From a virus, in IMG/VR virus record IMGVR_UViG_3300046369_001149, positions 4,800 to 68,799 of that record: a stretch of DNA of 64,000 nucleotides; one strand, 5' to 3'. This document shows positions 6,556 through 51,624 of the stretch, piece after piece. The notes beneath the pieces were generated by a model. It saw only the letters and a list, made by a program, of their open reading frames with translations. It was not told the origin of the DNA and made no database searches. Within the stretch, counting starts at the first letter, position 1; the number at the start of each line of letters is the position of its first letter. The translations under genes were made by a program, and so were the position numbers.

Positions 6556-9500
6556 ATGGCTACTTGGAAAGAAAAATACAATAAGAAATACGGGTATGAA
6601 AAATCTAAATCAAACTCACTTTCCGACATTGCTAAAGATACGGGGATAAGCAAAAGAGGGCTTCAACAAATTTATAATAAAGGAATTGGTGCATATAAAA
6701 CCAATCCACAATCTGTACGACCAAACGTAACATCAAAAGAGCAATGGGCTATGGCTCGTGTTTATTCTGCGGTTATGGGTGGTAAAGCAAGTAAAGTAGA
6801 TGCTAAAGAACTTAAAATGCAAATGGGTGGAAAAACAGAAAAAATAAATTGGTCTGAATATTATAAACAAGGCGGTCTTACAGAAAGCATTATGTCAGAT
6901 GAAATGCAACAAAGGTTATTTGACGAAAATGGTGAAAGAAAAAATGATTTAGAATCAATAGAGGTTTTAACGGATTATGTTAATTCATTACCTCAAACAA
7001 AATCAATTTATTATAATGAATCTACTCAAAAATATAGCCCCAAAAGACAAAAACTTCACAGAGAAATTATAAACGAATTTAAAGATGATTTAATTTGCGT
7101 TGAATCAGATGAACCTATTGCAATTTTAATGGGTGGTTCTCCCGCAAGTGGCAAATCTACTTTTTTAAGAAAGTATGCACCTTATTTATTATCAGAGGAA
7201 TTATTAAGAATAGATGCTGATGAGGTAAGGTCAAAACTTCCTGAATACGAAGGTTGGAACGCATCTCAAACACATTTAGAAACTAAAGACATTGTAAACA
7301 CTTTACTTTCAGATAGAACAATCGGGCTTCCTTGTGAATTTGATTTAATTTATGATGGTACAATGAACAATACAAAATCGTATTTACCATTAATTGATTT
7401 ATTAAGAAAATTGAACTACAAGATATTTGTTGTTTACATAGATAATGTTCCAAAAGATGTCATTGTAAAAAGAGCATTAGAACGCTATAAAAAAAGTGGT
7501 CGTTTTGTTCCACTCGAAGTTATTGATGATTTCTTTGATAAAGGGAAATCAGCTTTAAACGAAATTAAAGAAAAGGTAGATGGATATATGATTGTTGATG
7601 GTGGAAGCAATGATTATAGAATTATAGAAGAAAAAGGGATTAAACTGCCACAAAATAGAGTTTATTCTCAACTTGGTTATTCTATTGATGAAGAACAATT
7701 TAATAGAAATGACTTTTATAAAGGATATTATGAAAGATTAAGCCCTTCTAATTTTGAAGTGAAACAAAAAGGCGGTAAAATACAAATCGACCTACCAAGA
7801 ATGGCAACAAGCCACGATGGTATTGATGAGGTAGATGCTATTGCAAGTGGGGTGTTTGAAAAAGGTGGAGAAACAGATTTCAACCCCGATGGTAAAATAA
7901 AAGATAAAATTGTTCACGCTTCGGGTCAAGCGGGTGGTATGCTCGTTGGAAAAAGACATAGTAAGGGTGGAATCAAAGCAATAAACAAATCTACGGGGCA
8001 ACCTCTTGAAATGGAAGGCGGTGAAGTTGTTATTACAAGAGATGCAGTTTCAGATAATAAAAAGCGAAGTTTCAATGGAAAAATGATGACTAACCGACAA
8101 ATTCTTTCAGCTATTAACGAAAGTGGTGGTGGTGTTTCATTTGCAGATGGTGGTCAAGTTCCAAACGATGTTCAATTCGACTGCAATGCCGAGTATGAAT
8201 ATGGTGGAAAAACTATGTGTGGTAAAGATTTAGCTTATGCTTTGGGTGGAGTTACAAATTATTCTAAAGATGGTAATGACGTAATAGATGTTTTTTTAGA
8301 AAAATCTCCTAATGAAAAATATTTTGGCGATTTTGATGATTTATTAGTAAACGGAAAAGTTATATCAAAAAATAAATTTAACCCATATATTAAAGATAAT
8401 ATGGTTATTCTTGATAGCGATTATGATTGGTTGGCTATTAAAAAAAACAATACTGTTGAAATTGGTTTTGGATATGGTTCAAGTGGTCTTATTGATGATA
8501 TTCAATATTTGATACAAGAAAAAGCAATACAAAATGGATTAGATGTAAAAGTTGATGTATTAAAAAGATTAGCATCAAATAATAAATATTATATTAAAAA
8601 TGGACTTATCGCATTAAATCCTAATTATGCTTTAGGTGGTGTTACAACTGCAATAGTTACCGACCCAAATGAAGCAATGGCTGATTTACAATCAACCTAT
8701 GGCTTTGGAGATGTGTATGATAAAGGCGGGGAAGTCAATGAAGCCTATGTAGATTTTATGAACAAGGACAAGGGCTTTAAAGTTGAAAGAAAATATTTTA
8801 AAACTTATAGAGATGCTGAAAAATGGGCAAGAAATGAGTTTGACAGATTTAATCCCGATATGATAGGTTATACGGAATATGAAAGACCTTTAAGCAGTTA
8901 TGCTAATGGTGGTACAACTGATGATGAAATTTTTGATAATGCAAGAGAAGAACTTGGGGAAGAATATCTTGAAAATTTAGATAAGTTTGCAGAAGGTGGT
9001 CAATTAAGTCCTGATGAATTTCCCGCTAAATTAGATGTTGAAGAAACTAAAAAACAAATCAAAGAACCGAAAATATATGAGGAAACTTTTGAGATGAAGT
9101 TTTTAAAAGATAAAATTCAAAATATGCGTAAGATTTATAATCTTAAAAAAGCAAATTTATCTGAACTTGAAAAAGGTATTGAATTAAGAAAAATAAGGAG
9201 ATTTGAAATCAAATTAGATGAACTGAAATTAGAGCAAAAAAGTTTTGATGATATTTTAGATTCTATTATAGATTCTTCATTAGTAGAATTTGGAAATATG
9301 GATATTGAAAGAAAACTTACAAAATCAAAATCAATAAATGGAAAAACATCTGAATTAACCAAAAGAGAACAAGAAGCAGTAAAAACACAAAGTTTTATAG
9401 ATTGGTTTGGAGATTGGCAATTAGCTTATGAAAATAATAATTACGAAGGTGTTTCAAAAATTATTAACCCAACAACAAAAGAACCATTAGTGGTGTATCA

Positions 9501-10077
9501 CGGAACAAATAAAAAGTTTGTTTCTTGGGAAACATATACAGAAAATAACTTACATTATTTTTCTAAAAAGAAAGAGTTTGCAACGTGGTTTGCAGAGTAT
9601 TCAAGTTTTAGAGGTGATGATGCGTTTATTAAAGGAGAGGGCATTAAAAAGGATAACTTTACAGATGGAACTTATGTTTATTCTTGTTTTTTAGATATTA
9701 AAAACCCTATTGATTTTGCCCCATTTGGTGTAGAAGCAGTACCTTTTAATAAATTGTTAGAATACGTTACTGTTAAATATGATATAGATTTAAGCAAAAT
9801 TAAGGGCTATGAAAACTATAAAAATTTAACTACGAAAGTTTATACTTGGCGACTTATAAGACAATGGCAAAATTTTAATTTATACATAAGAAATAATACT
9901 CCTTTTGATGGGTTTAGTTTTTATGAATATATACCCGATTCGCAAAAAAGAGGGTTTGAAGATGCTTCATTATGTTTTACTGCATTTAACTCAAATCAAA
10001 TCAAATTCACAACTAACAATTCATTTACAAAACAATCTGCGGATAGTAGATTAGAAGTGGGTGGTCTAATTTTTTAA
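6556..10077 (+). CDS. large polyvalent protein: DUF5824-like N-terminus, zeta-toxin-like P-loop kinase, GG-delimited modules, ART-PolyVal-like C-terminus
   Basis: GGSPASGKST / RIDADEVR / DGT / RALER...GRFVP (zeta); FIDWFGDW...EPLVVYHGT...YF...NPID...AFNSNQIK (ART-PolyVal); about 11 xxxGG motifs. Confidence 0.8.
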   Translation: MATWKEKYNKKYGYEKSKSNSLSDIAKDTGISKRGLQQIYNKGIGAYKTNPQSVRPNVTSKEQWAMARVYSAVMGGKASKVDAKELKMQMGGKTEKINWSEYYKQGGLTESIMSDEMQQRLFDENGERKNDLESIEVLTDYVNSLPQTKSIYYNESTQKYSPKRQKLHREIINEFKDDLICVESDEPIAILMGGSPASGKSTFLRKYAPYLLSEELLRIDADEVRSKLPEYEGWNASQTHLETKDIVNTLLSDRTIGLPCEFDLIYDGTMNNTKSYLPLIDLLRKLNYKIFVVYIDNVPKDVIVKRALERYKKSGRFVPLEVIDDFFDKGKSALNEIKEKVDGYMIVDGGSNDYRIIEEKGIKLPQNRVYSQLGYSIDEEQFNRNDFYKGYYERLSPSNFEVKQKGGKIQIDLPRMATSHDGIDEVDAIASGVFEKGGETDFNPDGKIKDKIVHASGQAGGMLVGKRHSKGGIKAINKSTGQPLEMEGGEVVITRDAVSDNKKRSFNGKMMTNRQILSAINESGGGVSFADGGQVPNDVQFDCNAEYEYGGKTMCGKDLAYALGGVTNYSKDGNDVIDVFLEKSPNEKYFGDFDDLLVNGKVISKNKFNPYIKDNMVILDSDYDWLAIKKNNTVEIGFGYGSSGLIDDIQYLIQEKAIQNGLDVKVDVLKRLASNNKYYIKNGLIALNPNYALGGVTTAIVTDPNEAMADLQSTYGFGDVYDKGGEVNEAYVDFMNKDKGFKVERKYFKTYRDAEKWARNEFDRFNPDMIGYTEYERPLSSYANGGTTDDEIFDNAREELGEEYLENLDKFAEGGQLSPDEFPAKLDVEETKKQIKEPKIYEETFEMKFLKDKIQNMRKIYNLKKANLSELEKGIELRKIRRFEIKLDELKLEQKSFDDILDSIIDSSLVEFGNMDIERKLTKSKSINGKTSELTKREQEAVKTQSFIDWFGDWQLAYENNNYEGVSKIINPTTKEPLVVYHGTNKKFVSWETYTENNLHYFSKKKEFATWFAEYSSFRGDDAFIKGEGIKKDNFTDGTYVYSCFLDIKNPIDFAPFGVEAVPFNKLLEYVTVKYDIDLSKIKGYENYKNLTTKVYTWRLIRQWQNFNLYIRNNTPFDGFSFYEYIPDSQKRGFEDASLCFTAFNSNQIKFTTNNSFTKQSADSRLEVGGLIF

Positions 10078-11070: not shown

Positions 11071-12474
11071 ATGGCTTTAACTAAACAAGAATTAGAACAG
11101 AAAATACAAAATGAAACAGACCAAGTTTTGTTAGATGCTTATCAAGAAGAACTTGATAGGTTAATTGCTTTAGAAAACGCTGATGATGATTTATCGGAAG
11201 ATGATGTAACTCAACTTGTAAATAAATTGAGTTCGCAACTTGATAAAGCAGTACAATCTGTAAATATACAAGATAATAAAGTTCGTGATATTGTTTCGGA
11301 TGAAATTAAAACAACAAAATTTGGAATCAATAATCTTAAAAAAGATGTAGTTGAGTTAATAGGAAGAAGCCAAACTGTTACTCTTGTAAATTTTCAAAAT
11401 ATAAAAGCCAAAACCGAAGGTGGTAAAGTAAGAAGAATTTTTGAAGTTATGCTTTCTGATGCAGAAGCGGGTAATAACGTATATCTATATGGTGGTGCGG
11501 GAACGGGAAAAACTTACATATCGGGTCAGATTGCAGATGCCTTAAATTACAAGCTAATAACCCTGAACTGTAACCAATTCACGGGAGAACTTCAAATTGT
11601 TGGTGGTCAAACCATTGAGGGCTATCAAGAGGGAAGATTAACACAAGCATTTGGAAATTTAGACGAAGAAGGTCAAAAAGGTCTTGGTATAAATCCTGAT
11701 AATGGAAAACCTTATAGCGGTGCATTACTTTTATTAGACGAATTACCAAAACTTGACCCAAACTCTGCGGGTGTTTTAAATGATGGGTTGTCTAAAATAA
11801 AAGACCCCTTAAAATTAAAAATGATTGATGGTCAGCCAAAATTAGTACCACCATATATAATGAATGGAAGGGGTGAAAGAGTTGATAAAGGAAATATTTT
11901 TGTTATTGCAACGGGTAACTCAAAACTTAATGAAGCAGATGCAGATTATGAAGCGAATTTTAAGCAAGATTTATCACTTCAAGATAGATTTGTGGGTAGC
12001 ACATATCAACTATTAATTGACCCCGAATACGAACTTACTCAAATTATGAGTGGAATTATGGTTGAAATGCAAGGTAAAAAAATGATTTGCAATTTTGCCT
12101 TTCTATTTAATTTTCTTTTCAAATTAAGAACTGCAATAGAAAGTAGAGATAGGTATTCATCAAGAGCATTTGTATCAACAAGGGCTATGGTTTCATTGCG
12201 TGATACTTATATTGCTTATAGAATTAACCTTGCACAAAAGAACCCAATACCAAACGCTAAAACATTACAAGAGGGTATTGAATCATTTTTAGATTTATTT
12301 ACTCGTTCACAAAAATCGGAATTGGAAAAAGATGTTAATGTAGATGAGTTTTTCAAACTTATAAACACTAAAAACAAATTACCATTGGATAAACTTGATA
12401 GTGATTTAGACATTACGGAAGCAGATGCTTTAATAAAAGCAGATAAAACTAAATATGAAGGAGTAATTAGATAA
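11071..12474 (+). CDS. MoxR/CobS-like AAA+ ATPase
   Basis: Walker A GGAGTGKT, Walker B LLLLDE, IATGN sensor, QDLSLQDRF arginine finger, STR sensor II. Confidence 0.85.
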   Translation: MALTKQELEQKIQNETDQVLLDAYQEELDRLIALENADDDLSEDDVTQLVNKLSSQLDKAVQSVNIQDNKVRDIVSDEIKTTKFGINNLKKDVVELIGRSQTVTLVNFQNIKAKTEGGKVRRIFEVMLSDAEAGNNVYLYGGAGTGKTYISGQIADALNYKLITLNCNQFTGELQIVGGQTIEGYQEGRLTQAFGNLDEEGQKGLGINPDNGKPYSGALLLLDELPKLDPNSAGVLNDGLSKIKDPLKLKMIDGQPKLVPPYIMNGRGERVDKGNIFVIATGNSKLNEADADYEANFKQDLSLQDRFVGSTYQLLIDPEYELTQIMSGIMVEMQGKKMICNFAFLFNFLFKLRTAIESRDRYSSRAFVSTRAMVSLRDTYIAYRINLAQKNPIPNAKTLQEGIESFLDLFTRSQKSELEKDVNVDEFFKLINTKNKLPLDKLDSDLDITEADALIKADKTKYEGVIR

Positions 12475-14218: not shown

Positions 14219-17110
14219 ATGGCAAAAGAAAAAATAATTTTATTAGAAGGCGATAACTTAATTTATACTTTAGGTGCTATTTCTGATTCTTCAAATGACG
14301 TAATGACAATCGAATTTCCTCTTTATAAGTCAGGTGGTTCTTCTTCTTTCAAACAAAAAGACCTTGTTGCACAAATGTTTGATAAGGGATATTTTAATTT
14401 ACTCACAAGATTTGAGATAAGAAGCGTTAGAGATTTAAAAAAACTAACTCAACCCGCACAACCATATAAATTAAAAATAGGAAGTTCGGTGAGGTATGAA
14501 AACAATTCTTATGAAGTTATTGGATTATTTTATAACACATTTGCACAACAAAATATAGTAAGTCCTATTTTGTTTAATCCTACTGATTTAATAAATGATG
14601 TAAAATCTTTATTATTTGGGTTAAAAGAAAATGACGAAATAAATCAAATAATTAATGACAATTTAAATGAAGGTAAGTATTCAAACAATGTTGTTTTTCC
14701 TTTTTTAGCAAGTGTTACAAATTATAAAAATTATTTAAGCAATGTTGTTGAACCACCATTTACTACTCTTGACAGTATTAAAGTAGAACAAGAAAAAACA
14801 AGTTCAGGTGGAGATGAAATAATACCCTTTGAATTTCCAAAATTTGAAATAGATTTTGAAAAATCAATAAGAGATTCAAAGCGTGTTTATAATAATGTTA
14901 AAGAGTTGGATAAACTATATACGGAGAATGATTTTGAAGATTTAAATGCAAATTCTTTTTATGAAGTATTTGCAAAAAGCAAACAATTTCAGAATGTGGG
15001 GGTAATAAAAATAAATACTAATTATATTATTAAAAAAGACACAAAATTTAATTTACCTTATAATTACACAAAGCCTTTAGATAAAATGGATGAAGCCAAA
15101 GATTTATTGTTTGATACCCCGCAAGGAAAAATACCACCATTAGTCAAAATAGTTTCTTCTCAAATAAAACAAACTATTGGTTCAAACAATTTAGACAACA
15201 TAAATGAGATGTTGCTTTTCGGTGTGCTTAATAATGGAAATGATGAGGGTTCTATGGGTGAAGCCGAGTCCTTTTATAACATTTTATTTCAAAATGAAAC
15301 GACCTATATTGGTTTTGAAGAAGAAATTAAGGGTGGAGATTTTTACAGTAAAATACCATCTTTTGCCAATTCATTTGTTGAAAGATATTCTAAAATTTTA
15401 ACGCTTCAAGAGGATTCTTATTACGGAGATTTTTTTAATTCAAGTGGTTCTCCTTCAATGAACAGTAAAAACAATAATAAGATTCTTCCTTTTGGTAGTC
15501 TTGTCAAATTATCGGGAATTTGGTGGTACGTTGTTAAGTATTTTGCAACAGATATAAATAATATTGAAAACCTTAATAAATGTTTTTGTATTAAAGCAAC
15601 AACAAGGGATAAAGTTTTAGATTTTAATTTAAATTTTTATTCTAATACTGATAAAAAAAATAGAATAAGAGTTTATGATACAGAAAAAATATACAAAGCA
15701 TCAATTAAAAACTCGCATATTTTTAAGTTCCCGCCAAACTTTTTCAGTTCTCCGCAAAAAGGTTTAGAAATTGGAAACAAATCAGAAACAAAAAGCGGTA
15801 TAGTAACTGAATTGTTTTATGAAAAAAGAAAAGAGCAAGTGGATTTACTTAAAGATAATTTTCCTGAATTATCCGATAGTTTTTTTGGTATTTTAACTGT
15901 TTTAGATAAAAAACTTCGTAAGCCAAAAGATGAAATAACATCTATAAATACTGAAAATTCTATTTATTGTCTAATGACACAATCTTTTGTAGAAACATAT
16001 AACGATGATAGTTATGATGAAGAATTTAGAAAAAAAATAAATGAAATTTTAGAACCTGAATTTACGAGAAAAAATATGAGTTTGTATAATCCACAAGACA
16101 AAATATCTAAAAAATTAATTGATGTTGCTCTTGGAAGTTCGGTTATAAGTTTATATAATAATGATTCGTATAGTGGCTTTTATTTTTCAATTAATACTTT
16201 AGAAGATTACCAAAAATTATATGTTACTCGAACCTTTTTTAACTTTATTCAAGGTGTGGCAATACAAAATATTACAATTCAACATCAAAAAACGGAAGGT
16301 TTTGGTGAGAGGAGTAAAGTAAAATCAAACCCATTAAATACATTAAGTGCCTTTTCAAAAAATTACTTTTTATCCTCTTTACAAAATGTAGGATTTGAAT
16401 TTAATTATGATGGCTTTTTAGAAATTTATAATACGAAATCAACTGACTTAAACACCTCTTTTTTAAATAATATAAAAGAAAAAATAAATTATTTAAAATT
16501 TTCTAATTATTTATTTGTTTATCAAGTTTTAAGAAATCTGACACAACATATTCAAGAAGTAGCTTTATTGCACTTAACCAATAATTTTGAACAAAAGATA
16601 AAAGAACATCCTCTTGTTAAGATGTATAAAAATTTTGATTTGAATACAGAAATAGGATTTTTTGAAGATTATCACGTTAGAACTAATTTTCCATATACTG
16701 TAAAGGCAAGAATACTTCGATTTGAAGAAGAAAAGAACAACAAAATCTATGATGCTTTTGCAGAATCTAAAAGTAAATTAACACGGGAAATGATACGTTT
16801 TATTTTCACAAGTAGATGGAACGATAATTTAGATTTTGATTCAAGTGATGAAAATGAAAGAAAAGAAATAATTGGTATTTTCTTGTCTTTTATAAAAGTG
16901 TTAGATACAGTATATAATTTTGAACTTGATTTAACCAATAAAATAAAAGCTAAAAATAATAAGTTTTTAGAGGAATTTCCAATAGAACCAACTGATGAGG
17001 ATTTAAGCGAAGATGAATTTGATGATTCTGATATTTTTTCAGAAGCATTAGAAGATTTGGGCGATGAGTTTTTAGAAGAAATTGAAAGTGTAGATATAAC
17101 AGATTTTTAA
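14219..17110 (+). CDS. large hypothetical protein
   Basis: 963-aa ORF with acidic C-terminus; no recognised domain. Confidence 0.6.
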   Translation: MAKEKIILLEGDNLIYTLGAISDSSNDVMTIEFPLYKSGGSSSFKQKDLVAQMFDKGYFNLLTRFEIRSVRDLKKLTQPAQPYKLKIGSSVRYENNSYEVIGLFYNTFAQQNIVSPILFNPTDLINDVKSLLFGLKENDEINQIINDNLNEGKYSNNVVFPFLASVTNYKNYLSNVVEPPFTTLDSIKVEQEKTSSGGDEIIPFEFPKFEIDFEKSIRDSKRVYNNVKELDKLYTENDFEDLNANSFYEVFAKSKQFQNVGVIKINTNYIIKKDTKFNLPYNYTKPLDKMDEAKDLLFDTPQGKIPPLVKIVSSQIKQTIGSNNLDNINEMLLFGVLNNGNDEGSMGEAESFYNILFQNETTYIGFEEEIKGGDFYSKIPSFANSFVERYSKILTLQEDSYYGDFFNSSGSPSMNSKNNNKILPFGSLVKLSGIWWYVVKYFATDINNIENLNKCFCIKATTRDKVLDFNLNFYSNTDKKNRIRVYDTEKIYKASIKNSHIFKFPPNFFSSPQKGLEIGNKSETKSGIVTELFYEKRKEQVDLLKDNFPELSDSFFGILTVLDKKLRKPKDEITSINTENSIYCLMTQSFVETYNDDSYDEEFRKKINEILEPEFTRKNMSLYNPQDKISKKLIDVALGSSVISLYNNDSYSGFYFSINTLEDYQKLYVTRTFFNFIQGVAIQNITIQHQKTEGFGERSKVKSNPLNTLSAFSKNYFLSSLQNVGFEFNYDGFLEIYNTKSTDLNTSFLNNIKEKINYLKFSNYLFVYQVLRNLTQHIQEVALLHLTNNFEQKIKEHPLVKMYKNFDLNTEIGFFEDYHVRTNFPYTVKARILRFEEEKNNKIYDAFAESKSKLTREMIRFIFTSRWNDNLDFDSSDENERKEIIGIFLSFIKVLDTVYNFELDLTNKIKAKNNKFLEEFPIEPTDEDLSEDEFDDSDIFSEALEDLGDEFLEEIESVDITDF

Positions 17111-17121
17111 AATAGAGAAAT

Positions 17122-20100
17122 ATGACAACTAAAGAAATATACGAAAGTATTGACCAAAGTAAAATTAGTCCAAAAGGAAAGGACTTTTTGCAAAAAGCAG
17201 AAAAAAGCACAAAGGGTTTCACAATAGAAAATGAAAAACTTGAAACTGTGATGCGTAAAATCTATAAGGATTTAAAAGAACGTAAGCCCGAAGCATTAAA
17301 AAATGTAAAGGTTAAAACTGTTGAGGTAACAGAAAAAGTACCCACAACTAAAACTGAACGCAAAAAAGACCCTAAAAAAACAACTAAAACTGTTAAAAAA
17401 GAGGTCAAAAAGGCAAGTGGTACAAAGAAAAACCCAAAGCCAACAAAAACACCTTCAACACCCAAAGAAGGCAAAAAAGAGCATATTTCTACAAGAGCAA
17501 GTAAACTTGCAAAAAAAGAGGGAATTACTTTCAAAGAAGCAAGAGCAAAGATTTCAAAACTTGTAAAAGAAGAATCTAAAAAAGCTGAAAAGCAAACTGA
17601 AAAAGAACTTGATAAGCTATTAGCTTTTGTAAGAAAAGAATCTTTTGAAGGAGAAGAAAAGTACCCAAAAACTTATGGTAAACAAAAACCTGATGATGCT
17701 AATTTAAGTCAAGATGCTAAAAGGAGAGCAAAGCCCGTAGGAAAACGAGTTTCAAAAAATGGTAAAACATATTATGAATATCGTGATAATCGTAGTGATA
17801 GAAACTCACTTCCCGCACCTAAAGGACAATATAAATATAAAGGTAAAACACCCCCATTTTTACAAGCGGGTGGAACACTACCTACTCCATTTGGTCAAGC
17901 GGGTCTTGTTGGCGAAACGGGTGCTATGAATGAGATAGATTTGTTTGCAATGGGTGGGGATTTACCACAAGGAGTGCATCAATATTATGCTCAAACATAT
18001 AATCCAGCATACCCAACACCACACGGGTACGCTAAAGGTGGTAAGTTAGATTTAGATGAATATTACTCTAAAATGATTGATAAATTAGGTAAAGAGGGTG
18101 CATTTGAAAGAGTGCTTAAAGATAGCCAATTTGGAAAATATAAAGGGCAAACCGATTATCAACATAACAGATTAAATAAGAGTGCTATAATAAATGATGG
18201 AAAGGTATTTCTTTACGACAATAAACCAAAAGGAGATGGTTCATTAAAGTATTCAAATAAAAAAACTTTTACCTCTCCAAAAGATTTAGCAGAGTATCTC
18301 GATGAAAATGAAATTTTTGCTAAAGGTGGGGAGATTGATGCCTTTATTATGAGTTATGTAAAAGGTGTTCCCGAAGAAAACACTAATTTAAAAGTTGATA
18401 CTCAATCATTTACCGCAAAACTTAAAAAAGGTGGAAAATTAGGTTTCGATGGATTAGCCAAAAAGGTTGCAAAACGATATGAAGGAAAGCCCGTAAAAAA
18501 ACAATTTCAAAATGAGTATGGAAAGACTTACTCAAAAGCGGAAGCTATGGAAGTGGGTAGAAAAGTTGCGGGAAAAGTATATCGCCAACAACAATCAATG
18601 GAAAAAGGTGGAGAACTTTCAATGGAAAGTTATTGGGATATGATGATTAAAACTAATCTTGACAGAATTAAAAGAATAGACAAAATTAGAAATCAGCCAA
18701 TTAAAAAATTAAAAGAAGATAAGTTTAATAAAAACAAATCAACAAAAGAAATAGTAGATAATTTAAACGAACTCAAAAAGTTAAGAGCAGTTTATAAAGC
18801 AGATAATAATAAGTTAATTTCAAATTTTGGTGGAGTAAAAAAATATTCAGAATATTTAAGAAAGGAAAAAAACGAAAACACTTTACCATTTGCTAAAGGT
18901 GGGGAGATTGATGGAAGATATAAAGTTTTGCTTGAAAAAAGGGATAATAGCGGTAAATTATATCAACCAAATTTATATTGGAAAGGAAATAATAAAAACT
19001 TAATTTCTGAAAAAGTCAAAGAAGCAAAAAAAGATTTTCCCGAAAGAAAAGTATTTGTTACAGATGAAGTTGGCGATAGAGAAATTTATAACTATGCTAA
19101 AGGTGGGGAAGTTATTGAGTATTCTAAAGTTTATGAAATTCTTAAAGACAAAATAGACGAGGCGGTTGAGGATATTTATTCAACCTATGAACAAGCAGAA
19201 ACTAGTAAAGGAGAGGAAGTAGAAAGCAAAAGCCGAGATGGTTTTATTCCTTTTACTAATGGTGGATATAGTTCAAGATGGTTTGAATATAGCAATATGT
19301 TAGAAGGTTCGGGTATAGGATTACCAACAAAATCTTTGGATGATAAAATAGAAGAATTTAGAGAAAGAAATAGAGAATACGGATTTGAACGCTTTGAAGA
19401 AGAATATCCCGAAATTGTTAAAGAATTAGGTGGAATAGAAAATGTAAACTATTCGGAATTAGAAGATGCGGGTTATTCAAATGAAGCTGATGATTTGGAT
19501 ATGTTTATCCAAGATGATGATGATTCTGTTATGATGGAAGTTGAAGCATTTTATTATACTCCAAATAATGATAGAGGGAAAAACGGAAAACACACAATTC
19601 AATTAAGTGGTGTCGTTAATCTTGAAGCACCTTATCACAGAAGCGGAAATTTAGAAGATTACATTGTAGAACGATTTACGTTTGATTCATATAAAGAACT
19701 TGAAGATAAGTTAGACAAAGGGTTAGCTAAAGTCGTAAGTTGGTTTGAGGGAGATATGTATGACAAAAACCCAAGAGAATTAAAAATACGAAAAATGGAA
19801 GCGGGTGGAACACTACCTACTCCATTTGGTCAAGCGGGTCTTGTAGGAGAAACGGGTACTATGAATGAGATGGATTTGTTTGCAATGGGTGGGGATTTAC
19901 CACAAGGAGTGCATCAATATTATGCAAACACTTATAATCCCGCATATCCAACACCACACGGGTACGCTAAAGGTGGATATATAGAAAATGAAAAAATTAT
20001 CCCTTTGAATGAGGTCAGAAAAAATCCTAAATTAAAAAGAGAATTTTTAAAAGGTTATTATTTAGCAGTTTTTGAAAAAGGTAAAGAAACTGCAATAGGT

Positions 20101-21285
20101 GTAATTAAAACTCCTAATGAAATTATTGATGGTAGGCATTTAGGAAATGTTTATGCTGAAAAATTAAAAAACGGAAAAATTAAAATAAAATTTGGCAAAG
20201 AATACTACGCTAAAGGTGGGGAAGTTTCAGATTTAAAAATGAAATTAGATAAACTTGACCCAAAAGGAAATACAAGCGTTGGTTATGACCAAGATTCAAA
20301 AGAATACTATTGGGAAGATTATAAAAACGACATATATCGTGATGGATATAAAAGCGAAAAAGATTCTTACAATAATCTAATTGGCTATTTAAAAAGTTAC
20401 GCTAAAGGTGGTATAATTACTTCTGAAATGTATGACCCCGAAATTCATTACCAAGTTGTTGTGAATGATGATTATGATAGCCCACTATATTTTAAAACTT
20501 TTGCTTCTGCAAAAAAATATACTCTTGCTAATGTGAAAAATCAAGATAATACAATCATAAGTCCGCAAGGAGATTCAATAGAAGTTGAGAAAAATCAATC
20601 CAAAAAAGATTTAGATTTTTTATTTGAATATAGTATGGCTAAAGGTGGGGAAGTTGCCGATATTAACAAATTCAAAAAACAATTAATTGCTAAAGCCAAA
20701 AGAAAAGGATTATACGAAAATTTTGGTCAAGCCGAAGTTAGAAAACTTGAAGATAAATACGGATATTCAAACAACGTAAGAGAATTTGATAATTGGGCTA
20801 TGAATTTCGACCTTTCTCAAATGGCTAAAGGTGGTTATGTAGATATTATAAAAGTAACTGAACCGAGAAGCGGTAAAAGAACAAAAAAACAAGTAAGCAG
20901 AAAAGATACTTATAGAGAAGCATTAAAAGAAGTTGATAGATTAAATGCAAAAAATAAAAATCCCGATGTGAAATTTGTAACGGGTAATATATATGCTAAA
21001 GGTGGTAAAACACAAGGCTACAATGACAAACTTGATGAATCATTAGGTAACACCAAAGGGAAGCGTTCTACTAAAGAGCAAAACTATAAAGACCGCAGAA
21101 ATGAATCCGAAGCAATGGAGAAAAAAGGCGGTAAAAGAAAGTATGCTCGTGTAAAAACAATGGATAAGGGTACTCGTAAAAAACGCAAAACCCCTATGAC
21201 ACTTGCTAAAGCTATTCGTAGGGATGGTGAAAAATGGCAAGATGCAGTTAAAAGAGCAACAATTATGATGAAAAAAGAAAAGTAG
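17122..21285 (+). CDS. GG-delimited polyprotein (putative virion core/cargo precursor)
   Basis: Lys-rich N-terminus, then about 16 [YFML]x[KAM]GG junctions separating unrelated modules. Confidence 0.7.
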   Translation: MTTKEIYESIDQSKISPKGKDFLQKAEKSTKGFTIENEKLETVMRKIYKDLKERKPEALKNVKVKTVEVTEKVPTTKTERKKDPKKTTKTVKKEVKKASGTKKNPKPTKTPSTPKEGKKEHISTRASKLAKKEGITFKEARAKISKLVKEESKKAEKQTEKELDKLLAFVRKESFEGEEKYPKTYGKQKPDDANLSQDAKRRAKPVGKRVSKNGKTYYEYRDNRSDRNSLPAPKGQYKYKGKTPPFLQAGGTLPTPFGQAGLVGETGAMNEIDLFAMGGDLPQGVHQYYAQTYNPAYPTPHGYAKGGKLDLDEYYSKMIDKLGKEGAFERVLKDSQFGKYKGQTDYQHNRLNKSAIINDGKVFLYDNKPKGDGSLKYSNKKTFTSPKDLAEYLDENEIFAKGGEIDAFIMSYVKGVPEENTNLKVDTQSFTAKLKKGGKLGFDGLAKKVAKRYEGKPVKKQFQNEYGKTYSKAEAMEVGRKVAGKVYRQQQSMEKGGELSMESYWDMMIKTNLDRIKRIDKIRNQPIKKLKEDKFNKNKSTKEIVDNLNELKKLRAVYKADNNKLISNFGGVKKYSEYLRKEKNENTLPFAKGGEIDGRYKVLLEKRDNSGKLYQPNLYWKGNNKNLISEKVKEAKKDFPERKVFVTDEVGDREIYNYAKGGEVIEYSKVYEILKDKIDEAVEDIYSTYEQAETSKGEEVESKSRDGFIPFTNGGYSSRWFEYSNMLEGSGIGLPTKSLDDKIEEFRERNREYGFERFEEEYPEIVKELGGIENVNYSELEDAGYSNEADDLDMFIQDDDDSVMMEVEAFYYTPNNDRGKNGKHTIQLSGVVNLEAPYHRSGNLEDYIVERFTFDSYKELEDKLDKGLAKVVSWFEGDMYDKNPRELKIRKMEAGGTLPTPFGQAGLVGETGTMNEMDLFAMGGDLPQGVHQYYANTYNPAYPTPHGYAKGGYIENEKIIPLNEVRKNPKLKREFLKGYYLAVFEKGKETAIGVIKTPNEIIDGRHLGNVYAEKLKNGKIKIKFGKEYYAKGGEVSDLKMKLDKLDPKGNTSVGYDQDSKEYYWEDYKNDIYRDGYKSEKDSYNNLIGYLKSYAKGGIITSEMYDPEIHYQVVVNDDYDSPLYFKTFASAKKYTLANVKNQDNTIISPQGDSIEVEKNQSKKDLDFLFEYSMAKGGEVADINKFKKQLIAKAKRKGLYENFGQAEVRKLEDKYGYSNNVREFDNWAMNFDLSQMAKGGYVDIIKVTEPRSGKRTKKQVSRKDTYREALKEVDRLNAKNKNPDVKFVTGNIYAKGGKTQGYNDKLDESLGNTKGKRSTKEQNYKDRRNESEAMEKKGGKRKYARVKTMDKGTRKKRKTPMTLAKAIRRDGEKWQDAVKRATIMMKKEK
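17864..18041 (+). repeat. 178-bp direct repeat, copy 1
   Basis: Near-identical to 19799-19976; encodes AGGTLPTPFGQ...PTPHGYAKGG. Confidence 0.9.
18031..21005 (+). repeat. dispersed 11-bp repeat GCTAAAGGTGG x10
   Basis: Exact copies at 18031, 18319, 18892, 19096, 19966, 20209, 20401, 20638, 20824, 20995, all in frame. Confidence 0.9.
19799..19976 (+). repeat. 178-bp direct repeat, copy 2
   Basis: Near-identical to 17864-18041. Confidence 0.9.
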
Positions 21286-21334
21286 ATGAAGCATAGTTTA
21301 AGGCATAATATTGTTTTATAAAATAAAATTTTAG

Positions 21335-21342
21335 TAAGTTTG
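21335..21342 (+). promoter_or_regulatory. Bacteroidota-type -7 promoter element
   Basis: TAAGTTTG upstream of ATG 21365. Confidence 0.55.
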
Positions 21343-21364
21343 TAATAATTTTAAATTTTTAAAT

Positions 21365-21832
21365 ATGAATATTCAAGACACAATTAATGAGTTGCAGTTA
21401 GAATCAGTAGAACTGCCAAGAATTTTAAATCAACGAGTAAAAACAATTATTGATTTACAAAAAAAGGTTGAGTTAGCCAAAAAAGAGGTTGAATCAGATG
21501 ACAATGAAGAAAACAAAGCCAAATTAGAGGAAATTAATGATTATTTAAACGAATACTTTACTGATGCAGTAGAGCAATTAAAATCTTTTGCTAAAAAGCA
21601 TACTGAAAAAATGAAAAAAGAAGCAGAATTAAAAGAGAAAGAAAAAGAAGCAAAAGTAAAAGATGAAGTTAAATCAAAAACTGAACAAAAAGAAGCAACA
21701 GAAAAACAAACTGAATCGGTAGAAGCAGAACCCCAAAAAGAAAAATCAAATGGTGGATTGGGTGCTTTACTTATTGGGGGTGTTATATTGGTTGCTACTC
21801 TTGGTGCGGTTAATATAATGCGAAACAGATAG
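21365..21832 (+). CDS. coiled-coil protein with C-terminal TM anchor
   Basis: Charged helix followed by GLGALLIGGVILVATLGAV. Confidence 0.65.
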   Translation: MNIQDTINELQLESVELPRILNQRVKTIIDLQKKVELAKKEVESDDNEENKAKLEEINDYLNEYFTDAVEQLKSFAKKHTEKMKKEAELKEKEKEAKVKDEVKSKTEQKEATEKQTESVEAEPQKEKSNGGLGALLIGGVILVATLGAVNIMRNR

Positions 21833-22095
21833 TGATAAAAAAAGTTTTAATAGCGAGTGGGTTTTTAATAGGTGGGTATTTTTTAATTAAAAAAGTGCTT
21901 CCTTCTATTTCAAAATCAAATAATTTAAAACTTAACGTACAAGAAACAAAATCTGCTGATGATGTTGTAAATGAAATATTAAATAATAAAAACAAACAAA
22001 GACAGAAAATTGAAAGGGAGTTAAAAACTCATTACAACAAAGATGGCTCAAAGAACAGAAAGTGGTTTGAAGCACGAAATAATTTTAAAGTTTAA
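21832..22095 (+). CDS. N-anchored membrane protein (paralog of next ORF)
   Basis: MIKK..GGYFLIKK.LP and TKSADDV shared with 22095. Confidence 0.65.
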   Translation: MIKKVLIASGFLIGGYFLIKKVLPSISKSNNLKLNVQETKSADDVVNEILNNKNKQRQKIERELKTHYNKDGSKNRKWFEARNNFKV

Positions 22096-22479: not shown

Positions 22480-22773
22480 ATGGCTTATTCTATTTCATCA
22501 TATACAAAAGGTCAAGCACGAAAGTTGGGTGTTACTGTAAAACCAAGTAAAAAAAAAGGCAAAAAAATAGATGTCTTTAAAAAAGGTGAGAAAGTGGCAA
22601 GTGTAGGGGCAATAGGATATAAAGATTATCCTACTTATATGGCTCTTGAAAGAAAAGGTAAAGTGCCAAAGGGTACTGCTAAAGAACGTAGGAAGCTATA
22701 TAAAGTAAGACACAAAAAGGACAGAAATGTAAAAAACTCAAATGGCTATTATGCCGATAAATTATTATGGTAA
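22480..22773 (+). CDS. basic protein, DUF5754-like
   Basis: KK..V....VGAIGYKDYPTY...ERRKLYKVRH...GYYADKLLW; start reassigned to 22480. Confidence 0.6.
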   Translation: MAYSISSYTKGQARKLGVTVKPSKKKGKKIDVFKKGEKVASVGAIGYKDYPTYMALERKGKVPKGTAKERRKLYKVRHKKDRNVKNSNGYYADKLLW

Positions 22774-23141
22774 AAATAACAAGACAAGTGCCGACAATAT
22801 TAAGTGATTGGGCTTCTGCAATTTCACCTAATAACACCGCAGAAATGGTAAGGTTTTATTGTGTTAATGCAGTATTAGTTGGTACATATAGTCAGCCATT
22901 AGAAGTGGGTCTAAAACAAATATCGAAATACTTTGATTGGTTTTTAGATAAAAAAAGTATCAGTTGTAAAATTATAGATAATGTAAATCAAGAACTTGAT
23001 TGTTGTACTATTTCAAGTGGGGTTTATGAATTTATGGTAGATGGCAAAAAAGTAGTGGCAAGATACTCGTATGTTTTTAAAAATATAAATAACCGAATGA
23101 GGATAGTTAATCATCATTCATCTGAATTAGTTGAACTATGA
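22767..23141 (+). CDS. NTF2/SnoaL-like (CaMKII association domain-like) protein
   Basis: FYCVNAVLVGT...I.KYF..F...SGVYEF...ARYSYVF...IVNHHSS. Confidence 0.75.
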   Translation: MVKITRQVPTILSDWASAISPNNTAEMVRFYCVNAVLVGTYSQPLEVGLKQISKYFDWFLDKKSISCKIIDNVNQELDCCTISSGVYEFMVDGKKVVARYSYVFKNINNRMRIVNHHSSELVEL

Positions 23142-24438: not shown

Positions 24439-25087
24439 TAAAGTAACGTATGGTAATTTAAACCAAACGCTATTAGAAAATATGCAGAAAATGTGTATTG
24501 CTGATGAGGTAATACCTTTATTAGAGGGTGAACTTAAAGACAAAATACAACCACCTAAAAATTCATCAGAAAAAACAAAAGATGAATTAACTTCAATGGT
24601 TGAAAAAGTATCAAACATAACCGATGAATCTAATGCGGAACACTTTAGAAGATTTAAAAGGTATGATAGGTCTTTAGTTCAAACAATAACATCAACTTTT
24701 ATGCAAAAAGGATTAGACGTAGAAGAAATATGTTTATCCGTTAATGATGATGTTGCACCAACAATTATTAAGCTAAAACAAAAATACCAAAGACCAAGAC
24801 CATATCAACTTGCAGAATACTACAAACTTAAAATGTTTCCTTACGAAACTTATTCAGGTCATAGCCCATCATATCCAAGCGGTCATACGATACAAGCATA
24901 TTGTATGTTAAGTGTAGTGGGTAATAAATATCCTAATAGTTATGATTTCTGTAAAAAAATGATAGACGACATAGCTTATAGTAGAGTTCATTTAGGATTA
25001 CATTATCCAAGTGATAATGATGCATCGTTTATTATAGGGCAAGAAATAATAAAATTAAAATCATTTTCAGAAAAATATAAAATATGA
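24422..25087 (+). CDS. PAP2-superfamily phosphatase / haloperoxidase-like
   Basis: K...RPRP, PSYPSGH, SR..LG.HYPSD (all three PAP2 motifs). Confidence 0.85.
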   Translation: MAEWLNKVTYGNLNQTLLENMQKMCIADEVIPLLEGELKDKIQPPKNSSEKTKDELTSMVEKVSNITDESNAEHFRRFKRYDRSLVQTITSTFMQKGLDVEEICLSVNDDVAPTIIKLKQKYQRPRPYQLAEYYKLKMFPYETYSGHSPSYPSGHTIQAYCMLSVVGNKYPNSYDFCKKMIDDIAYSRVHLGLHYPSDNDASFIIGQEIIKLKSFSEKYKI

Positions 25088-25548
25088 AAGACGAGAAAGA
25101 AACTAAAGTAATTAATTTAGTAACAAACAACGACACAGACAAGCCAAAAGAACAACTGACCGCAGATGGTCAAAAAGTTTTACCCTATATAACACTTAAC
25201 ATCAACCCCGTTGCTAAACCTCGAATGACACAAAGCGACAAGTGGAAAAAAAGACCCGTAGTTCAAAGATATTGGGATTTTAAAGATGAACTAAAAATGC
25301 TTTGTTTCTTATGTAGATGGCAACCTAAAGACGATTTAGATGTTACGTTTGTATTACCAATGCCTACATCTTGGTCTGAAAGAAAAAAGAAAAAGACAGA
25401 AGGAAAACCTCATCAATCAAGACCTGATTTAGACAACCTTATAAAAGCATTTAAAGATGCTTTATTGGTAGAGGATAGCCACGTTCACACTTATCATAAT
25501 ATGAAAAAAGTTTGGGGAAGAAAAGGGGCTATAATTTTAAAGAGATAA
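25084..25548 (+). CDS. rusA: RusA-family Holliday junction resolvase
   Basis: PVAKPR, F.LPMP.SWS, RPDLDNLIKAFKDAL..EDS. Confidence 0.85.
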   Translation: MKDEKETKVINLVTNNDTDKPKEQLTADGQKVLPYITLNINPVAKPRMTQSDKWKKRPVVQRYWDFKDELKMLCFLCRWQPKDDLDVTFVLPMPTSWSERKKKKTEGKPHQSRPDLDNLIKAFKDALLVEDSHVHTYHNMKKVWGRKGAIILKR

Positions 25549-35129: not shown

Positions 35130-35591
35130 ATGACAAGAAAGAACAAAATAATTTTTTATGGTGGTATTTCACTTTTAACTGTAAGTTATATTATATATAA
35201 TAGGTGGTCAAAATCTATATTTTATGATGAAATACTTAAAAGAATAGGTGGGAACTCTATTAATTTTAATGAACTTAAAGTTTGGAATCCTTCTTTTTTA
35301 ATTTCTATTAAAAGTGAAAACAAACCTTATATCGAGTTGCAACAATCAGCAGTAAAAGAAAAAGCCGAAGAATTAGACGATGCGATGAGTGGTAGTGGTA
35401 CTGATGAAGAACAAATAATTTCTGTTTTTAATTCAATAAATTCAAAAGTTGAGGTTGCACAATTAAATTCATTTTATAACGCAAAATATAAAAGTGTTTT
35501 AAAAAATGACTTACAATCAGAATTAAGTAAAAAGTGGTTAAGCAAAATCACTCAAATAATTTCATTAAAACCCGATGTAATTTATATATAA
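35130..35591 (+). CDS. N-anchored protein with an annexin-like repeat
   Basis: AEELDDAMSGSGTDEEQIISVF...YNAKY...LKNDLQSELS matches the annexin repeat consensus. Confidence 0.7.
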   Translation: MTRKNKIIFYGGISLLTVSYIIYNRWSKSIFYDEILKRIGGNSINFNELKVWNPSFLISIKSENKPYIELQQSAVKEKAEELDDAMSGSGTDEEQIISVFNSINSKVEVAQLNSFYNAKYKSVLKNDLQSELSKKWLSKITQIISLKPDVIYI

Positions 35592-49720: not shown

Positions 49721-50584
49721 TCAACTTTCAAAGTCCAAAGTTAATGAATCTTTTTTATTTTCTAAAATATTATTTTCATTATTAATTGGCTCTAATTCAA
49801 TATCAATATTAGAATAAATAGATTTATTTCGTTTTGGTGCTATTCTTTTACCATCTACAAACATAACATTGTTATCTTCATCAAGTTTTAAATAACCACC
49901 ACCTTCTACTTTATCATCTACACTTATTCCTCTTTTGCCATAATAATCTTTAGGAAGCATTTTAGATAACTGCTTAATAACAGTTTTTCTAAACATCCAA
50001 CCTTGCGGGTCTTTTGAAGCATTTTTATATAATGGATTAGATGCCTTTGACATATTTACCACATCCATAATTTCTTTTTTACTCATAACCTTAAACATTG
50101 TTTCACCATTTGTAAGTTTAGCTACTGCATAAACATATTTAATGTTATTATTGTTTCTTTCAAGGTTTGGTAAGTGAGATAGTTTTGGTTCAAGACCAAG
50201 TTCAAATTCAAAATCATCTTCTTCATAAACTATTTCAGTCCAAAGTTTTGCTATTTCACCACTTCTTAAAAGTAAACTGATAAGACCTTTATAACCTAAA
50301 ATTGGTGTAATCTTTTTTCCGAAAGGTATAAAGTAAAACTCTCCTATATCATTTGAGGGGTTTAATCCGAGTTCAGCACAAAGTAATATAGAAGCAAACA
50401 GAGATGCGGGGTTATGCAAAAACGCTTCTTGCATCTGTTGGCTTTTTTTAACCTCATTTATAACTATATTTTTAAACTGTGATGGGCTTATGTTATGTGT
50501 TTGCAATAATTCTGAAAGATTATGCTTTTCATACTGCGTTATTGTGTCCGAGAAATTCTTAATTAATACTTTGTTTTGCTTCAT
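49721..50584 (-). CDS. recT: RecT-family single-strand annealing recombinase
   Basis: SLFASILLCAELGLNP..GEFYFIPF...LGYKGLI.L..RSG...VYEEDDF...M.RKTVIKQL.K.LP. Confidence 0.9.
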   Translation of the reverse strand: MKQNKVLIKNFSDTITQYEKHNLSELLQTHNISPSQFKNIVINEVKKSQQMQEAFLHNPASLFASILLCAELGLNPSNDIGEFYFIPFGKKITPILGYKGLISLLLRSGEIAKLWTEIVYEEDDFEFELGLEPKLSHLPNLERNNNNIKYVYAVAKLTNGETMFKVMSKKEIMDVVNMSKASNPLYKNASKDPQGWMFRKTVIKQLSKMLPKDYYGKRGISVDDKVEGGGYLKLDEDNNVMFVDGKRIAPKRNKSIYSNIDIELEPINNENNILENKKDSLTLDFES

Positions 50585-50852
50585 TGTGAAATTTTTTAAT
50601 TTTTAATCTATTTTCTTTACTGTAATTATATTTTCTTAACCATTCTTCTATTTTTCTTTTTTTTCTATCAACGTAAAAGTTTACTCTTACTATTTCATCA
50701 GTAATCATTTTTTTTTGCATAGGAGTTAGTTTATTATACATCATATAATCATACAGACCGCATACATATTTAGATATATAAATCATTTCTTCTTCATATT
50801 CATATATTTTCTTACTCGAAAAAAGTTGATTATCCATAATAAACATCCTCAA
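50559..50852 (-). CDS. hypothetical protein
   Basis: In operon between exonuclease and RecT. Confidence 0.5.
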   Translation of the reverse strand: MRMFIMDNQLFSSKKIYEYEEEMIYISKYVCGLYDYMMYNKLTPMQKKMITDEIVRVNFYVDRKKRKIEEWLRKYNYSKENRLKIKKFHNEAKQSIN

Positions 50853-51624
50853 TCAAAGGAATATCTGATTTAAACTCACATTTGTCATTTAGAGGACATT
50901 TAGAGCATCTTTTTAAACTTGGATAAGCTACGAAGTCCTTTTCAATATCCATAGCGTTAATTTGCTTGTAAACGCTTTCTATATGCGACTGATGTACATT
51001 AAAAGCATCTTCATCAATATTAACTCTAATTAGCTTAACATTGTTTACTTCTTTTGATGAAAACACCATAAAATAAAAATCGAAATCTTTGTATTCAAGA
51101 TTATAATTTTCTTTTATAAGCATTTTATACTGTACTGCTTGAACAATAAGTCGTTCTTTATAGTGTAAACTTTCAACATCCCAACCCGTTTCAGACCATT
51201 TATCATCAATAAGACCGCTATATTTTAAATCTACAATACAAGGTCTGCCATTCATTTCTCCCCATATATCTAAAATACCATTTTTATATTTGCTTGATAA
51301 TTTAAGCCCAATATCATTTATTTTTAAATCATATTGCTTTTGTATTTTTTTAAATAATTCTGCTGATTCTAAAGCCCTTTTAAAAGGAGTTGATATTGTT
51401 TCCCTTTTAGTACCCGCATAACTTAATCTTGGTTCGGGTACAATTCCGTTTCTTGGTAATGAACCCGTAGCCATATATTCAAAATAGTTTCCCAAATCCA
51501 TAGCTTCACTACTTGGAAATTGTACGTTGTCAAAATGTTTAGCTTTTAGTTGAATACCACAAAGGTTTTTACCTTTATACTCATTGTAATCTTTTAAGAA
51601 TGATTGACTTATTTTCTTATCCAT
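50830..51624 (-). CDS. PD-(D/E)XK Cas4/RecE-like exonuclease
   Basis: ISQS, GILD...IVDLK, Q...Y, C-terminal CxxC..C; upstream of recT. Confidence 0.8.
   Translation of the reverse strand: MDKKISQSFLKDYNEYKGKNLCGIQLKAKHFDNVQFPSSEAMDLGNYFEYMATGSLPRNGIVPEPRLSYAGTKRETISTPFKRALESAELFKKIQKQYDLKINDIGLKLSSKYKNGILDIWGEMNGRPCIVDLKYSGLIDDKWSETGWDVESLHYKERLIVQAVQYKMLIKENYNLEYKDFDFYFMVFSSKEVNNVKLIRVNIDEDAFNVHQSHIESVYKQINAMDIEKDFVAYPSLKRCSKCPLNDKCEFKSDIPLIEDVYYG

Follow-up and report, generated by a model that had tools for sequence, protein, structure and literature searches.

A DNA word conserved at the peptide junctions of an in-frame cassette array in an uncultured marine phage

Why should a short peptide that recurs ten times along one phage protein be written in the same DNA letters each time? 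The question is raised by the gene P0001 (17122..21285, + strand) of an uncultured marine phage. The window analyzed here is a stretch of 64,000 nucleotides (nt), bases 4800-68799 of the complete 68,799-bp IMG/VR virus record IMGVR_UViG_3300046369_001149, which has a guanine plus cytosine content of 29.7% and a perfect 127-bp inverted terminal repeat at its ends. The open reading frame (ORF) of P0001 and its translation of 1387 amino acids (aa) comprise a conserved head, an anchor peptide, nine variable cassettes and a conserved tail, with A-K-G-G junctions encoded by the 11-nt word GCTAAAGGTGG. An earlier note made from the window alone (the original prediction) had proposed that the junctions form an integron-like array and act as DNA recombination joints for the gain, loss and shuffling of protein cassettes. 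Our comparisons indicate that the junction is first of all a conserved peptide within what appears to be a known protein class. Its DNA word is more conserved than the peptide requires, and the cassette differences between genomes begin and end inside that word.

The ten exact copies of GCTAAAGGTGG reported earlier were all recovered in the window, on the + strand, and none of 100 dinucleotide-preserving shuffles gave any match. In the whole record the word occurs ten times in forward and never in reverse orientation, and a reversed control word does not occur. All copies lie in frame in P0001, each encoding [Y/F/M]-A-K-G-G. Junction 1 (18031..18041) reads GYAKGG|K and is followed by junctions 2 (18319..18329, IFAKGG|E), 3 (18892..18902, PFAKGG|E), 4 (19096..19106, NYAKGG|E), 5 (19966..19976, GYAKGG|Y), 6 (20209..20219, YYAKGG|E), 7 (20401..20411, SYAKGG|I), 8 (20638..20648, SMAKGG|E), 9 (20824..20834, QMAKGG|Y) and 10 (20995..21005, IYAKGG|K). 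The spacings between them (288, 573, 204, 870, 243, 192, 237, 186 and 171 nt) are all multiples of three. Two longer shared words are likewise present as described, TTT GCT AAA GGT GGG GAG ATT GAT G at junctions 2 and 3 and GCT AAA GGT GGG GAA GTT at junctions 4, 6 and 8. Codons that the junctions do not use are indeed common elsewhere in the gene, with GCA encoding 32 of 73 Ala and GGA 38 of 116 Gly. The peptide is widespread, as 119 of the 120 relatives listed for P0001 (the set underlying all counts over 120 given below) contain 1-16 A-K-G-G sites each.

Codon bias accounts for part of this identity. In the other genes of this genome, GCT is used for Ala before AAA in 30 of 71 cases and AAA for Lys before Gly in 79 of 100. 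For the first Gly of a G-G pair, 110 of 140 codons are GGT, 16 GGG and 14 GGC, with no GGA, and the absence of GGA-GGN suggests a strong avoidance of GGAGG inside genes. The joint chance of identical codons in the window was 1.5e-6 for ten sites and 5.9e-6 for nine, the latter being the number of independent sites, since two of the ten lie inside a 187-nt duplication. GGT and AAA are thus preferred throughout the genome and largely expected, and within the window alone the real anomaly is GCT at ten of ten sites.

The comparison was extended to the DNA of 23 further loci from IMG/VR and from JGI, ENA and TARA metagenomes (L011 and L033 were dropped because their contigs were already in the set), which gave 190 in-frame A-K-G-G sites in 22 of the 24 sources. 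For the more distant DUF5661 branch, a search with the protein P0088 led back to a contig of the set, and a search with an alignment brought up no DNA. The exact 11-mer was found at 164 of the 190 junctions, in 22 loci. At 173 of the 190 junctions GCT encodes the Ala, whereas in the rest of these ORFs an Ala that precedes Lys has GCT in 103 of 239 cases (43%). The junction Lys is written AAA at 189 sites, compared with a background of 239 of 313 (76%), and GGT serves as the first Gly codon at 178 sites, compared with 186 of 262 (71%). The third base of the second Gly, which falls just outside the word, is free (92 GGT, 52 GGA, 43 GGG, 3 GGC). As homologous junctions are not independent, they were collapsed into families and groups: GCTAAAGGT is kept in 88 of 101 upstream-context families and in 34 of 40 conservative groups, where 23% would be expected (binomial p = 3e-16). 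It was therefore possible to answer the codon-usage question posed with the original prediction: the identity of the junctions exceeds codon bias.

A per-codon scan of the 156 non-anchor junctions showed that the synonymous excess runs from P5 to P1' (with the junction Lys at P3), about 18 nt, and falls to background beyond. The preferences in the flanks are weaker than in the word itself, with TAC at P5 in 43 of 60 cases (background 0.26) and GAG at P1' in 22 of 42 (background 0.19). Three controls speak against an effect of accuracy or codon pairs in general. In the anchor peptide, the columns with invariant Ala or Gly have retained GCG (25 of 28), GCA (29 of 32), and GGA or GGG; x-K-G-G sites with x other than Ala have AAA in 64 of 79 and GGT in 49 of 79 cases; and A-K-G without a following Gly has GCT in 8 of 14 cases, counted in open frames of at least 100 aa, a few of which may be non-coding. 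There is also a dialect of the word. Two arrays have mostly GCA junctions, L018 (1548-4232) and L022 (1268-3502), and together they use GCA at 7 of 10 sites, compared with 8 of 180 sites elsewhere (Fisher p = 4e-7). Further out, 105 proteins from distant relatives with the same head carry A-K (180 sites), A-D (45), E-K (43) or A-E (39) before G-G, with A-R also occurring, and some same-head proteins are entirely without the A-K form. The protein thus has no universal need for Lys at P3.

The relatives were then compared for the presence, absence and order of modules. Cutting 121 proteins at A-K-G-G yielded 947 modules, and those of at least 25 aa fell into 275 clusters, which recur across proteins in varied orders and combinations. 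One case is P0002, which is 98-99% identical to P0001 throughout but lacks exactly the 68-aa cassette between junctions 3 and 4 (...LPFAKGG|EVIEYS...), these two junctions being the left and right breakpoints of the difference. A more divergent case is L010, whose best segment against P0001 has only 49% protein identity. It nevertheless has the cassette between junctions 8 and 9 in common with the window at 196 of 198 nt, and no relationship is left in the flanks beyond GCTAAAGGTGG on either side. From that junction L010 runs straight into the tail, so that the window cassette preceding junction 10 (20836-21006) is precisely absent. Other single cassettes bounded by the 11-mer are held in common at 96% (L016, starting at junction 5), 93% (L019, starting at junction 7), 89.5% (L009 and L025) and 83% (L024), while the heads of the loci with these cassettes are 70-79% identical.

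The same tendency was seen across the whole set. The 24 sources were compared all against all by blastn, and high-scoring segment pairs (HSPs) with 95% identity or more were examined for their internal limits. The 11-mer coincided with 41 of 52 starts and with 33 of 46 ends, 20 of these starts and 21 of these ends lying exactly at its edge, whereas random positions coincide in 5-11%; in these counts each pair enters in both directions and some loci are near-duplicates. At the protein level, HSP ends lay within 5 aa of a junction in 59% of 10,546 cases at 70% identity or more and in 85% of 2,588 cases at 90% or more, compared with 7% at random. Module presence, absence and order thus differ between relatives with breakpoints at the 11-mer, and the proposal that junctions are joints at which cassettes are gained, lost and shuffled has come out well from both the codon and the relatives comparison.

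The cassettes are framed by conserved ends. The Lys-rich N-terminal head module (aa 1-249; 17122..17868, + strand) is followed by a first copy of the anchor peptide (GG-TLPTPFGQAGLVGETG...NPAYPTPHGYAKGG; 17869..18042, +), which ends in junction 1, and a second anchor copy (19804..19977, +) ends in junction 5. Both copies are spanned by a 187-nt direct repeat (17864-18050 and 19799-19985) of 93% identity. The first junction-bounded module, aa 1-307 with head and first anchor, is present in 79 of the 120 relatives, and a query with aa 1-308 retrieved 254 cluster representatives at E<=1e-3 and 92 at 1e-10 among 1.84 billion. The array closes with a basic C-terminal tail module (KTQGYNDKLDESLG...; 21007..21285, +), conserved in 64 of the 120. 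These module-sharing counts come from a rough table, in which long low-identity HSPs span several modules, and it was used for the head and tail counts and for examples of reordering. Between the conserved ends an array may hold 0 to 16 junction-bounded cassettes. The lower extreme is P0163 (357 aa, on a 65.8-kb contig), an "empty" member with head, anchor, AKGG and tail, the tail directly after the anchor. Many relatives (L014, L015, L018, L022, L025) have two or three adjacent array genes.

A G-Y-A-K-G-G context exists in 84 proteins, and in the first such context of most of them the 56-aa anchor is nearly invariant; with the anchor as query, only 2 loci were found in viral_contigs. An AlphaFold model of P0163, built from a 28-row alignment, showed a confidently helical head and tail (head predicted local distance difference test, pLDDT, 80-90) at a mean pLDDT of 58 and a predicted template modelling score of 0.22. 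The anchor was predicted to be disordered in this model (pLDDT 30-37), so that the peptide, although conserved, is probably extended. It contains G-G twice more, as E/Q-A-G-G|T and as F-A-M-G-G|D/G, in both cases with other codons. In P0002 the second anchor copy equals the first at the two residues where the copies in the window differ, which hints at gene conversion between copies.

What kind of protein carries such an array? P0001 itself has no Pfam or PHROGs family (Pfam gave a sub-threshold I29 match only), and blastn and tblastn searches of 50,697 GenBank phage records gave no match to the gene. Sequence searches of the PDB with P0001 and two upstream ORFs returned nothing useful, and an ESM Atlas search with the 232-aa cassette gave no usable match. 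Among 8000 scored metagenomic candidates, 162 homologues were found at E<=0.001, with patchy coverage (5-53%) and variable Pfam content. The families seen in them are RelA_SpoT, Zeta_toxin/AAA_33, ArdA, DUF5824, DUF5661, DUF7447 and LPD11 (large polyvalent protein-associated domain 11); LPD11, RelA_SpoT, Zeta_toxin, ArdA and DUF5824 occur in homologues that have head, anchor, tail and cassettes in common with P0001. A second large gene of the window (6556..10077, +; 1173 aa) encodes a protein with Pfam domains DUF5824, Zeta_toxin/AAA_33 and ART-PolyVal. LPD11 and the other repertoire domains of the homologues, together with ART-PolyVal in the second gene, probably place P0001 among the phage polyvalent proteins of Iyer et al. 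2017 (PMC5512222), as judged from domain content. In the available text of that paper these are, like P0001, large phage proteins with many unrelated modules and highly variable architectures; P0001 is a large multidomain phage-encoded protein whose architecture varies strongly among relatives. Proteins of this class are expected to be packaged in the virion and to enter the host along with the DNA; near P0001 the Pfam and PHROGs scans recognized no structural genes. The same text proposes processing into separate domains, mainly by built-in zincin-like metallopeptidase domains, whereas no zincin-like domain was found in the array gene. It mentions neither a G-G junction peptide ('gg motif' and 'linker' have 0 occurrences) nor conservation of junctions at the nucleotide level. 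The 6556..10077 product has 20 G-G sites, many of a looser hydrophobic-x-x-G-G form (FADGG, YALGG twice, YANGG, FAEGG, YDKGG, FEKGG), with no A-K-G-G and with mixed Ala codons.

We favor, with slightly more belief than doubt, a dual reading of the junction: as peptide a processing or linker site, and as DNA a short recombination linker, in a framed cassette array within a polyvalent protein. The head, the 56-aa anchor and the basic tail would frame small unrelated cassettes, each individually exchangeable and each ending in [Y/F/M/L]-A-K-G-G. In the protein, the junction would be an exposed linker, most likely cut after G-G to release the cassettes. In the DNA, the fixed word GCT AAA GGT GG with its weaker one-codon flanks would offer 11-18 nt of identity in the same codon phase, the sole sequence in common between unrelated neighboring cassettes and hence the likely crossover point. 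Rare short-homology crossovers or template switches could join any two junctions, within a gene or between co-infecting relatives, and each event would delete, duplicate, insert or swap whole cassettes while preserving frame and motif, since all copies of the word stand in the same codon phase and any junction-by-junction crossover leaves an intact in-frame protein. Cassettes that keep the consensus would stay exchangeable, which, with repeated crossing-over in the word, would keep the synonymous sites uniform by concerted evolution. The clustered GCA variants and the other residues before G-G in distant relatives fit such concerted evolution. The phage encodes a RecT-family single-strand annealing protein (49721..50584, - strand; PF03837 E=1.5e-34, phrog_148), an adjoining PDDEXK-like exonuclease (50830..51624, -; phrog_1227 E=7.5e-6, PF12684 E=7.8e-6, near the cut-off) and a RusA-like Holliday-junction resolvase (25084..25548, +; phrog_140 E=4e-18, PF05866). 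These are candidate catalysts; a role of RecT with the exonuclease as its partner, and of RusA, in the exchange is plausible.

For the predicted processing after G-G we see about even chances. It is suggested by the position of the peptide between unrelated modules, by the looser sites in the second polyvalent gene and by the likeness to G-G-specific viral proteases. Viral polyproteins cut at G-G are known from adenovirus, whose protease cleaves (M/I/L)XGG-X, and from African swine fever virus (pS273R), and G-G is also cleaved in substrates of ubiquitin-like proteases and in double-glycine bacteriocin leaders. The array junction resembles these sites in that G-G follows a hydrophobic residue at a distance of a few positions and is assumed to be cut directly behind its second Gly; it differs in that the matching protease families Peptidase_C5, C48 and C39 gave no match here. 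The T5 tape-measure protein, cut 'after R1127' and without a G-G context in the available text, was not used as a parallel.

A number of observations weigh against the dual reading. When the ORFs were scanned with Pfam and PHROGs no protease was recognized, and Peptidase_C48 (PF02902), C5 (PF00770), C39 (PF03412) and S78 (PF04586) all had 0 matches in six-frame searches; a cleaving enzyme might be of a novel type or come from the host. In the available text of De Paepe et al. 2014 (PMC3945230), the shortest segments that pair efficiently measure 31-34 bp with RecA and 23-27 bp in a second pathway, so that the 11-18 nt available at the junctions fall short of them; exchange would then be rare or take another route, e.g. 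replication slippage. Breakpoints inside a universal word would also be expected from selection for intact modules, and the comparison thus cannot prove that the word promotes recombination. Nor does the freedom of the second Gly at its third base point to recombination in particular, as it would suit any 11-nt signal. Protein HSP starts are tied to junctions more weakly than ends (21-22% vs 7% at random), many of them coinciding with the left edge of the anchor (E/Q-A-G-G), another kind of boundary. A structure model with five cassettes was uninformative (mean pLDDT 36) and lends no support to independent folding of the cassettes. Finally, all relatives are metagenome assemblies, and the loci are partly dependent, some pairs being near-identical.

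Could the word instead have a function of its own, as a translational pause or as a protein-binding or nicking site in RNA or DNA, with recombination there merely incidental? We regard this as unlikely, although the constraint does resemble a position-weight motif, with a strong 11-nt core and weaker flanks (P5 TAC, P1' GAG). The core AAAGGTGG(GGAG) is purine-rich and, in our reading, Shine-Dalgarno-like, in a genome that otherwise avoids GGA-GGN (0 of 140). Such a function is harder to reconcile with the absence of the word elsewhere in the genome, with the existence of GCA dialect arrays and with the other codons used at the remaining G-G sites of the same proteins (Q/E-A-G-G, F-A-M-G-G, E-K-G-G). 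Moreover, 16500-22000 gave no Rfam match at E<=0.1, with neither an Rfam family nor a tRNA found in support of RNA explanations; the array has no inverted repeats, and an in-frame start codon does not consistently follow the word. A somewhat smaller chance is given to the idea that only the protein matters, A-K-G-G being a mere linker or cleavage peptide whose boundaries reflect selection on random illegitimate recombinants and whose codons reflect codon-pair or accuracy preference. GGT as first codon of G-G and AAA (about 80-85%) are indeed preferred genome-wide, bacterial translation often favors TAC, GCT and GGT, and the peptide is kept far beyond the lineage covered by the DNA. What speaks against this idea is the excess of GCT over its 43% background and the 9-nt identity in 34 of 40 groups rather than 23%, together with the equally invariant anchor Ala and Gly that keep GCG, GCA, GGA or GGG, the K-G-G control at background, and breakpoints that are exact to the nucleotide and without linker scars.

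Two further explanations have very little probability. One is that the pattern of shuffling is an artefact of metagenome assembly, with strain switching at repeats. All relatives do come from assemblies, and the gene holds the 187-nt near-repeat and repeats of up to 25 nt; yet the 11-18-nt word is shorter than the usual assembler k-mers, the same pattern is seen in contigs from many independent sources (IMG/VR, TARA, ENA, JGI), and cassette identities range from 72% to 99% within one genome pair, unlike strain-level chimeras. The other is a true integron-like or shufflon-like system with a site-specific recombinase that recognizes the junction word, which is close to refuted. The integron comparison made in the original prediction holds as a loose analogy: every cassette has the same short site in the same orientation on either side, the conserved ends enclose a varying number of cassettes, and "empty" arrays such as P0163 exist. 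It does not hold for the mechanism. Searches for an IntI-type integrase (PF00589) in six frames of the complete record gave 0 matches, with the control positive in 14 of 14 genomes; the resolvase family PF00239 likewise had 0 matches in the complete record, and neither appeared in the Pfam and PHROGs scans. In 17800-21285 there are no attC-like sites (0 inverted repeats of at least 12 nt within 120 nt). The cassettes are in-frame ORF segments without stops, starts or promoters of their own rather than promoterless complete genes, and their exchange is presumably homology-based.

The closest described analogue of the DNA role that the dual reading assigns to the junction would be the motifs of bacterial polymorphic toxins. 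According to the available text of Poole et al. 2011 (PMC3150448), sequences encoding VENN in CdiA and PxxxxDPxGL in Rhs demarcate toxin cassettes, the motif is the precise point at which homology between cassettes starts and stops, and the cdiA and rhs cassettes have been proposed to be reloaded through recombination of the sequences that encode it. As in the array, a short conserved peptide marks the exact point of divergence. The toxin systems differ, as described there, in being bacterial, in swapping a single C-terminal toxin and in having silent orphan cassettes with immunity genes, whereas the array has 0-16 cassettes in one phage reading frame, with the word on both sides and only 11 nt long. 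No Pfam domains of the CdiA/Rhs type appeared in the general scans of P0001 or the window ORFs.

In the modular theory of phage evolution, linker or boundary sequences lie between modules. The junctions are similar to these as short conserved crossover sequences at module boundaries, and here, too, a phage RecT and exonuclease are present. Relaxed recombination by phage Rad52-like/RecT recombinases is a further parallel, and RecT-type enzymes recombine short and diverged sequences, as stated in the available text of De Paepe et al. 2014 (PMC3945230); the junctions differ from such linkers in lying inside one gene, in phase, with ten repeats, and in being far below the pairing segments quoted there. 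The E. coli Chi octamer, which the word resembles with an inserted AAA, was also thought of and dropped, as the word is confined to this gene. In the literature searched, supplements aside, neither this junction nor the conservation of its nucleotides was found described.

The protein class is known, and the new part is the constraint at the nucleotide level, i.e. the fixed DNA word, the limits on its synonymous sites and breakpoints that are exact to the nucleotide. The first-strike tools of a phage against host defence are thought to reside in polyvalent proteins, and the fast change of their domain sets has so far been described merely as 'shuffling'. In P0001 and its relatives the joints of this shuffling are visible at single-nucleotide resolution, and their signature is that synonymous sites are frozen only there. 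A bolder version of the dual reading, offered tentatively and with more doubt than belief, is that the junction is a dual-code element selected for evolvability. In the protein, the 11-18 nt would specify the cut or linker signal of an effector polyprotein delivered by the virion; in the DNA, they would be an in-phase recombination linker, by which phages could trade, drop and stack anti-defence cassettes without a dedicated recombinase. Such an array would correspond to an integron that works in frame and without an integrase; molecular drive would keep it uniform, and lineage-specific dialects would set the exchange partners. Recoded joints are predicted to show less exchange, and a common dialect should go with common cassettes. 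The junction also supplies a sequence rule for splitting hundreds of unannotated metagenomic giants into functional units, many of them candidate anti-defence proteins, and suggests a natural design for in-frame modular protein libraries.

The surroundings of the array gene were also inspected. Between the two polyvalent genes lies an AAA_5/AAA ATPase gene (11071..12474, +), together with three large ORFs of 329, 580 and 963 aa. A terminase, a portal, a major capsid protein and a prohead protease all went unrecognized by Pfam and PHROGs in the ORFs scanned. Lysozyme and amidase genes are present in the record. Two small ORFs gave surprising Pfam matches, an Annexin repeat at 35130-35591 (+, E=2.2e-7) and a CaMKII association/SnoaL-like domain at 22767-23141 (+, E=1.2e-5).

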